Under the pieces are notes generated by a model. It saw nothing but the letters and a program-made list of their open reading frames with translations. It had not been told where the DNA came from and did no database searches. 64,000 nucleotides of DNA from a virus (lineage: Duplodnaviria; Caudoviricetes). The translations under genes and the position numbers were made by a program. Below are positions 20,532-21,620 of this stretch, in pieces. The stretch is taken from positions 4,179 through 68,178 of IMG/VR virus record IMGVR_UViG_2822194890_000001, one strand, 5' to 3'. The first letter of the stretch is position 1; each line of letters starts with the position of its first letter.

Positions 20532-20671
20532 TAAGTTGTTATTTCGCTGTTTACAAACAAAAAAGCTTATTGTAACGTAGTACACAACAAGCATCATTCT
20601 ACAAAACAAAACATTTTTTGATAAATCAAATCTACATAAATAGATCAAGCAAAACAATTGAATATGAACAC

Positions 20672-20848
20672 AAAACAAAAAGCCACTCCCATTTGCTATT
20701 GGCACCAACCGATAGCGGGAATGACTTACTCTAGCAAGTGTACCACCACTTGTCTAGAAAGAACTGTATTCAACCACAGTGTTAACGTTTAAGTAGTGTA
20801 CCACCACTAACCTTAAACAACTATGCCTTTTCACGAGGCTTCTTTGAT
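20672..20848 (-). ncRNA. Putative ~175-nt antisense (copy-control-like) RNA with several stem-loops
   Basis: SigA promoter TTGATA-17-TAAAAT (20883-20855); hairpin loops GUGGUA, GUGGUA, UUGGUG; ends in a U-tract. Confidence 0.6.
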
Positions 20849-20932
20849 ATACCCATTTTATCTATTGTTTGGATAAATATCAACTAGTAAATACTAGTTT
20901 TGATTATTTTGTAGTCCAAAAGATATATACCG

Positions 20933-21004
20933 GGCATCTCTAAACCTAGAAGTCTTGTGAATGTACAGGCCATTTAGGAATTGGAGATGCCTTTTTGTTT
21001 TTTT
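20933..21004 (+). terminator. Attenuator-like terminator downstream of the antisense target
   Basis: GGCATCTC...GAGATGCC stem followed by TTTTTGTTTTTTT. Confidence 0.65.
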
Positions 21005-21620
21005 GTTCGCGTGGAATTGCCTGATACCACGTTGATAAAAACTGATAAGCCGTAATTCCGTGCTTCTATATAGAGGGAACGTGTTACGGCGTGGCTAGCT
21101 GTTGGTCGTGCAGGGGGTACAGAGTATACGCCTACAAAAACAGCACCCCTCATTGGAATCCTGTTCTTCTGGTGAGGGTGGGCGAGAACTTGCCCAGGGA
21201 CGATTCTCTAAAAGGTTCGGGTGGTTATCGTTAGCATTACGGTGCTAGGGAGTACATTCAGTTTGTCGTGTAGGGACGATATTACAAGGACAAGCCATAG
21301 AAAAAGGATGTATGCGGTGAAGATCGCTGAGTGAACAGGGTCTATACATACGGATACCTTATAAGTGACCGCATGGAAAAAAACAAAGACGCTTATCCAT
21401 CTATTTTGACTGATTACTTTATTTGTAGCCGTTCAAAGTAGGGGATAAATCTGCCTTCCAGCCGTATTCCTTAATAGTTCCCACATGATAAAAACCCTCA
21501 AGACCTTCAGTCAAGATTAATTATGAAGAAAAGCAGAAAAACTTGAGATTGTATAAATCCTGGGGGAATTACTCACTAAGATAGAGGAATATATAAGGGA
21601 ATTATAACTTGCTTGGGTAG
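21005..21620 (+). other. ORF-free, relatively GC-rich, hairpin-dense region; candidate replication origin or primer RNA
   Basis: No ORF of 60 aa or more in the track; many stems (CACCCCTCA/TGAGGGTG, GGGCGAG/CTTGCCC, TAGCA/TGCTA, ATGCGGT/ACCGCAT); three G5 tracts. Confidence 0.45.

Follow-up and report, generated by a model that had tools for sequence, protein, structure and literature searches.

Introduction

Theta replicons that lack a gene for a replication initiator (Rep) have been known in Bacillus since 1992-1995, and they underlie both the pHT304/315 vectors and the model conjugative plasmid pLS20. The pHT1030 replicon (ori1030) is the basis of the pHT304/315/370 vectors, and its minimal form is reportedly protein-free. 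The title of the paper on pHT1030 of B. thuringiensis presents a replicon of a novel type (Lereclus & Arantes 1992 Mol Microbiol 6:35). pLS20 is a plasmid of B. subtilis (natto), with a replication module, oripLS20, treated by Meijer et al. (1995 NAR 23:3214). Its origin maps to 64501-65745, a stretch of ~1.1 kb without a replication gene whose initiation mechanism is unsolved according to the 2021 paper on the family (PMC8557374). pLS20 is assigned to the class E theta replicons and its minireplicons replicate in polA5 strains. Here, we describe a related locus, positions 20543-21697 of a 64,000-nucleotide stretch of phage DNA (the window), which we call the module. Comparison of sequences leads us to conclude that it is probably the plasmid-mode replication module of an integrase-less temperate phage, a Rep-less, RNA-based theta replicon of the pLS20/pHT1030 kind.

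The window comprises bases 4179-68178 of a 68178-bp IMG/VR virus record (IMGVR_UViG_2822194890_000001) that is rated complete. The record is a siphovirus-type temperate phage with an arbitrium receptor (AimR), defence genes, a UmuC-like polymerase and a replication gene set of the Sak / replisome-organiser / DnaC-like / RecU type. The lack of an integrase, noted earlier for the window, extends to the entire record, as the tyrosine integrase family PF00589 has no match across the 68178 bp and there is only one small resolvase. The Pfam families RepA_N, Rep_3, Rep_trans and Rep_1 likewise have no match across the whole record. The gene content agrees with the 'Group 8' plasmid prophages of a published B. 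cereus survey, which names ParA and an RHH adaptor as the only plasmid functions of the group and lists its replication proteins as the replisome-organiser plus DnaC-like loader type; pF837_55 is among the plasmids that match the module.

A first-pass annotation, made from the letters alone, had proposed a candidate Rep-less, antisense-RNA-controlled replicon at this locus, in which the RNA made by read-through may itself be the primer or origin activator, a mechanism not known to its author to be described for B. cereus-group replicons. The first proposal is supported by similarity to the protein-free pLS20 origin, by an ORF (open reading frame)-free region in the B. thuringiensis plasmid BTB_15p, by small plasmids that carry the module, and by selection on RNA structure. 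The claim of novelty does not stand, given the publication of pHT1030 as a novel replicon type in 1992. Rep-less class E theta replicons are already known, and the module belongs to a known, mechanistically unsolved kind that is not the first in the B. cereus group.

Results

A discrete cassette without a replication gene

In most loci, homology to other plasmids and genomes begins at 20543/20550 and ends at 21696-21702. These sharp edges indicate that the module is a discrete cassette. As first described, about 1 kb next to parS has no credible ORF: between 20708 and the start of the next gene at 21777, there is no ORF of 60 or more amino acids. No ORF of at least 100 amino acids was found in 33 homologous stretches, and no ORF is common to all 33. 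Thus, a frameshifted rep gene, which the first-pass annotation had raised as a competing explanation, fails as an account of this region: none was found in the 33 homologues. Among the matches listed (60 records), one 'hypothetical protein' is the only annotated coding sequence under the module. The GC content is 0.50 at 21000-21300, compared to ~0.30 around it.

A long plus-strand RNA under structural selection

To characterize the GC-rich part, we aligned 30 homologues of 21005-21525, including members from Paenibacillus and Pseudalkalibacillus, and obtained a consensus of 99 base pairs. In this consensus, 98% of alignment cells are paired, compared to 38-47% in controls in which the partner was slid. 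Covariation analysis, which had been suggested with the original proposal, revealed that 46 of the 99 plus-strand pairs are changed on both sides, as against 16.8 +/- 2.5 in shuffles and 7-19 in slid controls. Since G-U cells greatly exceed A-C cells (461 versus 15), the fold belongs to the plus strand and is neither a cruciform nor a minus-strand RNA. A long plus-strand RNA is therefore under strong structural selection. The pLS20 family and the window family both retain hairpins with UACG and with GAAA/GAAG loops. UACG and GAAA-type tetraloops are hallmarks of RNA, and their conservation favours RNA over single-stranded DNA. No Rfam family matches the core (21092-21513).

These results refine how the region was first described. 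The ~600 nt of GC-richer, hairpin-dense sequence is real, but is better seen as one ~420-nt domain (21092-21513) plus a 5′ hairpin (21010-21031; H1). Two of the three G5 tracts reported there are present (21113-21117 and 21563-21567), while the third is a G4 at 21441-21444. This G4 (UAGGGGAUA) is the sole invariant G tract and is paired; the G5 at 21113 is an ordinary strand of a covarying helix, and the G5 at 21563 is variable.

Hints of transcription come from assembled RNA-library contigs of relatives, in which strand, 5′ and 3′ ends and levels are unreadable and DNA carry-over is possible. Contigs from two studies cover 20543/20700-21697 in relatives at 90-95% identity, with the core at high depth. 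In one run, an isolated contig of 282 nt (20649-20931) starts where the sense RNA is predicted to begin and reaches the base of the terminator that precedes the core; missing cover elsewhere in that run is uninformative. We regard the contigs as a weak hint of expression.

It is unlikely that the origin instead acts at the DNA level, through single-stranded DNA structure (primosome assembly or single-strand initiation) or through sites for DnaA or other host factors, with transcription serving only to open the duplex. Single-stranded DNA hairpins do tolerate G-T pairs, and strand-specific single-stranded origins occur in rolling-circle replication plasmids and as ssiA of pAMbeta1, but a 420-nt, 13-helix fold with a covarying pseudoknot, UACG and GAAA tetraloops and 461 G-U cells is typical of RNA, and the coverage of the whole core in RNA libraries from two studies also points, weakly, away from a DNA element. 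The absence of a promoter directly upstream of the core, whose RNA depends on reading through a strong terminator, would fit a DNA-level origin. DnaA boxes are favoured as important elements of the pLS20 origin in the paper on that family (PMC8557374). However, DnaA boxes are not enriched in the module, where a single site is found when up to 1 mismatch is allowed (0.4 expected) and eight when up to 2 are allowed (5.1 +/- 2.2 expected).

A sub-domain of the core also has relatives outside plasmids. In six B. cereus-group species, a syntenic chromosomal relative of window positions 21225-21360 lies downstream of a yajQ-like gene, at ~1.12-1.18 Mb. These loci (L051 1501-1660 and the corresponding positions in L052, L053, L054, L056 and L058) score 41-67 bits with our window-family covariance model (R1), with E from 1e-9 to 4e-17. 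The terminator of the yajQ-like gene replaces the first hairpin. The fold can thus exist outside plasmids, and the chromosomal relative may be an old captured fragment or a chromosomal small RNA.

Similarity to the pLS20 family of origins

We compared the module to pLS20 and eight family members, and built a second covariance model (R2) from these nine origins only. The only match of R2 in the window lies at 21229-21333 (plus strand; 25.6 bits, E ~8e-6, these E-values being rough), and R2 matched the same spot in two relatives (L016 and L045). Plus-strand covariation is also seen in the core of the pLS20 family, in which 34 of 127 pairs have changes on both sides.

The two regions are built alike. 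Each is ~1.1-1.2 kb without a replication gene, located between a partition operon and the next gene, and the order of parts in pLS20 is the same: a sense promoter, an antisense promoter (TTGACG-17-TAAAAT), a large terminator, a hairpin and a GC-rich core. The pLS20 antisense side would give one or more minus-strand RNAs of ~60-160 nt with minus-strand terminators. At the position of H1, the pLS20 family has a 5′ hairpin followed by AAUAAACUGA. The GC-rich plus-strand core of pLS20 likewise covaries and contains many G-U pairs, and is followed by AAAGUCAAG / AGTCAAG. The papers on pLS20 that we consulted contain no description of this RNA anatomy.

The regions also differ. The partition system is Alp7A/R in pLS20 and ParA in the phage; pLS20 has a perfect DnaA box, while the module has none; and the inner core helices are not the same. 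pLS20 is a conjugative plasmid of a B. subtilis-group host, whereas the module is carried by a phage of the B. cereus group.

A related control region in BTB_15p

For pHT1030, we used BTB_15p (NC_018880.1, from Bt407), which is probably pHT1030 or a near copy of it. BTB_15p is a 15.2-kb plasmid with a Tn4430-type transposon (TnpI resolvase and Tn3-family transposase), which is also how pHT1030 is described. A family profile built without BTB_15p matched this plasmid at 1329-1732 with E 8e-63 (the control region) and at 2270-2396 with E 3e-10 (the right end, with AGTCAAG and ACTAAGATAG). The left part, consisting of the sense promoter, the antisense RNA with its promoter and the terminator, is homologous to that of the module, with 88% identity over the first hairpin, and both lie in ORF-free DNA, which in BTB_15p is a stretch of ~1.3 kb (1141-2470) with a GC-richer centre. 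BTB_15p differs in having no par locus there. Its upstream 346-aa gene (101-1141), which has sub-threshold similarity to RepA_N (E 9e-4) and to HTH_36, may be the spbA stability gene of pHT1030.

The module as the replicon candidate of small plasmids

A blastn search of PLSDB with 1.14 kb of the module detected it in at least 125 B. cereus-group plasmids, and in 76 of these the match covers nearly the full length, with 87-93% identity. Of 71 species-representative genomes of the genus, 31 also had a match. The largest carriers are megaplasmids of up to 590 kb; at the other end are plasmids of 6.9-7.6 kb, among them pBFR_1 (7.3 kb), plas4 (6.9 kb) and a 7.6-kb B. toyonensis plasmid, and a Paenibacillus contig of 4.56 kb. 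This contig (NZ_JACSQL010000035.1, Paenibacillus gallinarum; 4632 bp, 265x coverage) comes from outside the Bacillaceae and is the smallest natural carrier that we saw. As its termini overlap by 77 bp, it is circular, with a length of ~4.56 kb, and it carries little beyond the module, a resolvase and an HTH_3 protein. In the 4.6-7.6 kb carriers, Pfam searches revealed resolvase and HTH proteins and no Rep families. The module is the sole obvious replicon candidate in several 4.6-7.6 kb plasmids. Two carriers have the MOB-suite type 'rep_cluster_1520' in common, a label that could not be traced to a sequence.

These carriers bear on the phage's own replication genes. The intact Phage_rep_org_N replisome-organiser and IstB/DnaC-like loader genes at 43617-45195, which the first-pass annotation did not mention, could replicate the plasmid form, leaving the module as an accessory (in incompatibility, copy sensing or stability) or as a relic. 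The B. cereus plasmid-prophage survey does list such proteins as the replication proteins of the group, with ParA and the RHH adaptor as its only plasmid functions. We find this explanation quite unlikely, as the module occurs without these genes in the 4.6-7.6 kb plasmids, is linked, in plasmids from 7 to 590 kb in size, to par loci and not to the genes of phage replication, resembles the pLS20 origin, which was shown to replicate alone, and has promoters, a terminator and a fold that are all under purifying selection.

A non-replicative RNA system, such as a very long structured leader 5′ of the downstream gene, or a free-standing RNA for regulation, defence or toxin-antitoxin function that has its own antisense partner, is highly improbable: although no terminator was detected in the sense RNA before the 174-aa gene at 21777 and the core sub-domain has syntenic chromosomal relatives near the yajQ-like gene (E 1e-9 to 4e-17), homology ends sharply at 21697, ahead of that gene, no conserved protein lies downstream across carriers (the genes there are unrelated, and face the opposite way in p133753), and the small plasmids would have no replicon left.

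Organisation of the control region

The left part of the module contains a candidate sense promoter, an antisense promoter, a predicted antisense RNA and a terminator (Table 1). The first-pass annotation had reported a strong minus-strand promoter, TTGATA-17-TAAAAT. We find it at 20883->20855, and its -10 remains functional by consensus in 23 of 23 homologues even though the letters change (TAAAAT, TACAAT, TATACT or TATAAT). On the plus strand, the candidate promoter was located by alignment to divergent members, which at this position have TTGATT-17-TAAGAT or TAAAAT, TTGCGC-17-TATAAT, or TTGCTT-17-TAATAT.

The RNA predicted from the minus-strand promoter (~20848->20677) folds with -60.8 kcal/mol and ends in GGCUUUUU (U5). 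Its counterparts in homologues are 103-180 nt long and form 3-5 hairpins. The stems, including the terminal stem, are kept with U-G pairs that are valid only on the minus strand. Loop sequences vary between elements in an allele-like manner (GUGGUA, UUGGUA, CUACCAA, CUGAGUA/CCUGAGAAA and GUGAGA), and two loops of one RNA often have the same motif. Kissing-loop copy control and incompatibility determinants would be expected to show such a pattern, and we suggest that the loops serve these roles. An antisense RNA of ~175 nt with loops GUGGUA, GUGGUA and UUGGUG and a 3′ end in U's had been proposed; the RNA stands, at a predicted 172 nt, while one GUGGUA loop forms only in an alternative register. 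Apparent complementarities of the antisense loops to H1 or to the right-end repeats showed no covariation across homologues, by eye.

A perfect palindrome, ACTAGTA-AA-TACTAGT, abuts the antisense -35. Within it, TCAACTAGTAA is invariant in all B. cereus-type family members, including BTB_15p, and is absent in pLS20. The palindrome may be an operator for some regulator.

The plus-strand terminator first placed at 20933-21004 is evident as a hairpin at 20932-20991 with a T-tract at 20992-21004, present in both the minimum free energy (MFE) fold and the centroid of the leader (z = -9.2 for the leader fold). The terminator is bidirectional in several relatives, and its apical sequence CCUAGAAGUCUUGURAAUGUACAGG is conserved, even in BTB_15p. 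Attenuation driven by the antisense RNA, as in pT181 or pIP501, had been suggested, but the terminator forms in the MFE and centroid structures without the antisense RNA, and inspection by eye and of MFE folds revealed no conserved alternative pairing of its 5′ arm that could act as an antiterminator. An effect of the antisense RNA on the stability or folding of RNA is a possible alternative. A consensus scan found no promoter between the terminator and the core, and thus the core RNA must arise by read-through.

The right end

The minus-strand promoter-like element at the end of the core (Table 1) has an equivalent in pLS20 (TTGACT-18-CAGAAT; L018 4484-4513) and, by eye, in BTB_15p. It could be a promoter or only a feature of the RNA; if active, it would give an RNA antisense to the whole core. 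The remaining sequence, 21515-21697, is a candidate start site for DNA synthesis.

The last ~65 nt of the module (21634-21697, ending ...GATATAGTACGTGAAATT) occur alone, at 83-94% identity, in the plasmid-phages IEBH, 250, 0105phi7-2, LY4 and PfNC7401, and are also present in megaplasmids without the rest of the module. This sequence may mark a joint left by recombination, or it may be a small element in its own right.

Table 1. Features of the candidate replicon module and the adjoining partition locus (window coordinates)
Feature	Position	Strand	Basis
Whole module	20543-21697		Homology edges in plasmids and genomes; RNA-library contigs of relatives diverge at 20543 and 21697
Terminator-like hairpin and T-run between module and parS	20565-20592	-	Consensus scan only
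Candidate sense promoter, TTGATA-17-TAGATC, weak -10	20619-20647	+	Inferred from alignment with strong promoters of divergent members
Predicted antisense RNA, ~172 nt, 3-5 stem-loops, long 3′ terminator hairpin	20677-20848	-	Folds of 22 homologues
Antisense promoter, TTGATA-17-TAAAAT	20855-20883	-	Consensus scan; homologue alignment
Palindrome ACTAGTAAATACTAGT abutting antisense -35; TCAACTAGTAA invariant	20883-20898		Invariant alignment columns
Long intrinsic terminator, ~28-bp stem and T-tract	20932-21004	+	In MFE and centroid of leader; conserved
Hairpin H1 (CGUGG...CCACG), then AUAAAAACUGA	21010-21031	+	3 covarying pairs
Core structured RNA domain, 13 helices, closed by UGGCU/AGUCA	21092-21513	+	Covariation, 99 pairs
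Pseudoknot, 21226-21230 with loop 21277-21281	21226-21281	+	5/5 pairs changed on both sides; 100% paired versus 10-60% in slid controls
Sub-domain in common with pLS20 origin: UACG-loop hairpin, enclosing helix, AAAAAGG, GAAA/GAAG-loop hairpin (21314-21327)	21229-21333	+	Match to model R2
Promoter-like TTGACT-18-TATCAT pointing back into core; -35 is invariant AGUCAA of closing helix	21485-21514	-	Consensus scan
AT-rich stretch, then GA-rich imperfect direct repeats (..ACUxACUAAGAUAGAGGA.., ..GGUAGAGGAUAA.., ..GGUAGAAUAGG..)	21515-21697		Read from sequence
Partition locus	18517-20540	-	ParA 19255-20142 (Pfam AAA_31/CbiA/ParA matches), two small adaptor genes, parS repeats 20200-20540

Surroundings of the module

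The partition operon occupies 18517-20142, and GTATAC-type repeats extend from it to ~20540. No transfer RNA or transfer-messenger RNA was found. An Rfam scan of the whole window and a permissive local scan gave nothing relevant, with only microRNA-like matches on the parS palindromes. The cumulative GC skew of the 68-kb record tracks gene orientation and contains no origin signal.

An unannotated protein of 166-199 amino acids without a Pfam match adjoins the control end of the module in three small plasmids (L003 3977-4576, L016 3891-4391 and L025 1192-1761) and is absent from plas4 and from the 68-kb phage. It may be an accessory factor. BTB_15p and pBFR_1 have neighbours with weak RepA_N or HTH_36/DnaD_N-like similarity that have no counterpart in the 68-kb element.

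Discussion

A model that accommodates these features is that the weak sense promoter (~20619-20647) transcribes rightwards, giving an RNA whose first ~200 nt would be complementary to an abundant ~172-nt antisense RNA from the strong 20883->20855 promoter. Kissing of hairpin loops would set copy number and incompatibility, with the antisense RNA lowering either read-through or the function of the sense RNA. Most sense transcripts would stop at the long terminator (20932-21004), and those that read through would fold into the ~420-nt pseudoknotted RNA (21092-21513). This RNA, rather than a plasmid-encoded protein, would license initiation by host enzymes at or just past its 3′ end (21480-21700), probably as an R-loop or primer to which the host primosome is recruited. 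The adjoining ParA/parS system would segregate the copies.

We advance more tentatively, as a possibility that could well prove wrong, the idea that the ~420-nt RNA is itself the class E initiator. It would take the place of Rep, marking the origin and bringing in the host primosome either as a ribonucleoprotein or in the form of a lasting R-loop or primer, and incompatibility would be determined by the loops of the antisense RNA. A single RNA family would then lie behind pLS20, the ori1030 vectors, phage-plasmids and small plasmids. If this is true, that family reaches dozens of Bacillus phage-plasmids, small plasmids of Paenibacillus and Pseudalkalibacillus, and a B. cereus-group chromosomal relative.

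Several observations weigh against a Rep-less RNA replicon of the pLS20/pHT1030 kind. That the module can replicate is deduced from homology. The reciprocal search of pLS20 with R1 gave 13.7 bits, at the noise level set by a 14.4-bit decoy, and neither nhmmer (with core and family profiles) nor blastn matched pLS20. The relationship to pLS20 is therefore distant; in our judgement from the sequences compared, it is distant but real. That BTB_15p is pHT1030 is our assumption, and its central ~550 nt have no relation to the window core that R1 or nhmmer could detect. Since the control region and right end are nevertheless common to both, the cassette looks modular, with exchangeable cores.

Other such points concern the element itself. 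The sense promoter has a poor -10 in the phage-plasmid subgroup, which would fit an element of one to two copies that depends on par. Because the terminator forms in the MFE structure without the antisense RNA, no attenuation switch is evident. The RNA-library contigs do not give the strand or ends of the RNA, DnaA boxes are not enriched, and the phage has its own replisome organiser and loader (43617-45195). Lastly, the 166-199-aa protein and the neighbours with weak RepA_N or HTH_36/DnaD_N-like similarity mean that helper proteins may have gone unrecognised.

In the papers that we consulted, we found no description of the antisense RNA together with the large pseudoknotted RNA, of the link between pLS20 and the B. 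cereus group, or of a role in phage-plasmids. The module offers testable parts for a long-known kind of replicon: an antisense RNA with allele-like loops, a terminator and a pseudoknotted fold supported by covariation. If it is the replicon that we propose, it would explain how many integrase-less phages of the B. cereus group persist as plasmids, for which the survey named partition proteins only, and it would predict incompatibility groups and copy-number mutations for Bacillus vectors.

Among well-studied systems, ColE1 is similar in logic, with a long sense RNA running toward the origin and a short antisense RNA of several hairpins directed against its 5′ part. The specific analogies to ColE1 that were first drawn do not hold. 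The G-rich stretch of the ColE1 primer anchors an RNA-DNA hybrid, whereas the G5 tracts of the module are not conserved; RNAI and RNAII gave no Rfam match at the gathering threshold or at E up to 10; and the relative pLS20 replicates in polA5. Unlike ColE1, the module has a strong terminator between the antisense target and the long RNA, and its hosts are Gram-positive. pT181, pIP501 and pAMbeta1 resemble the module in that an antisense RNA overlaps a leader ending in an intrinsic terminator, but in the module no rep gene follows and no alternative antiterminator fold was seen. A functional parallel comes from mycobacteriophages with parABS, whose prophages are extrachromosomal and have non-RepA (RNA-based) origins (Wetzel et al. 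2020, PMC7157519). Like the phage described here, they are integrase-less and temperate, with par genes beside a transcribed region without protein genes, although their hosts are Actinobacteria, such that the parallel is with another phylum.

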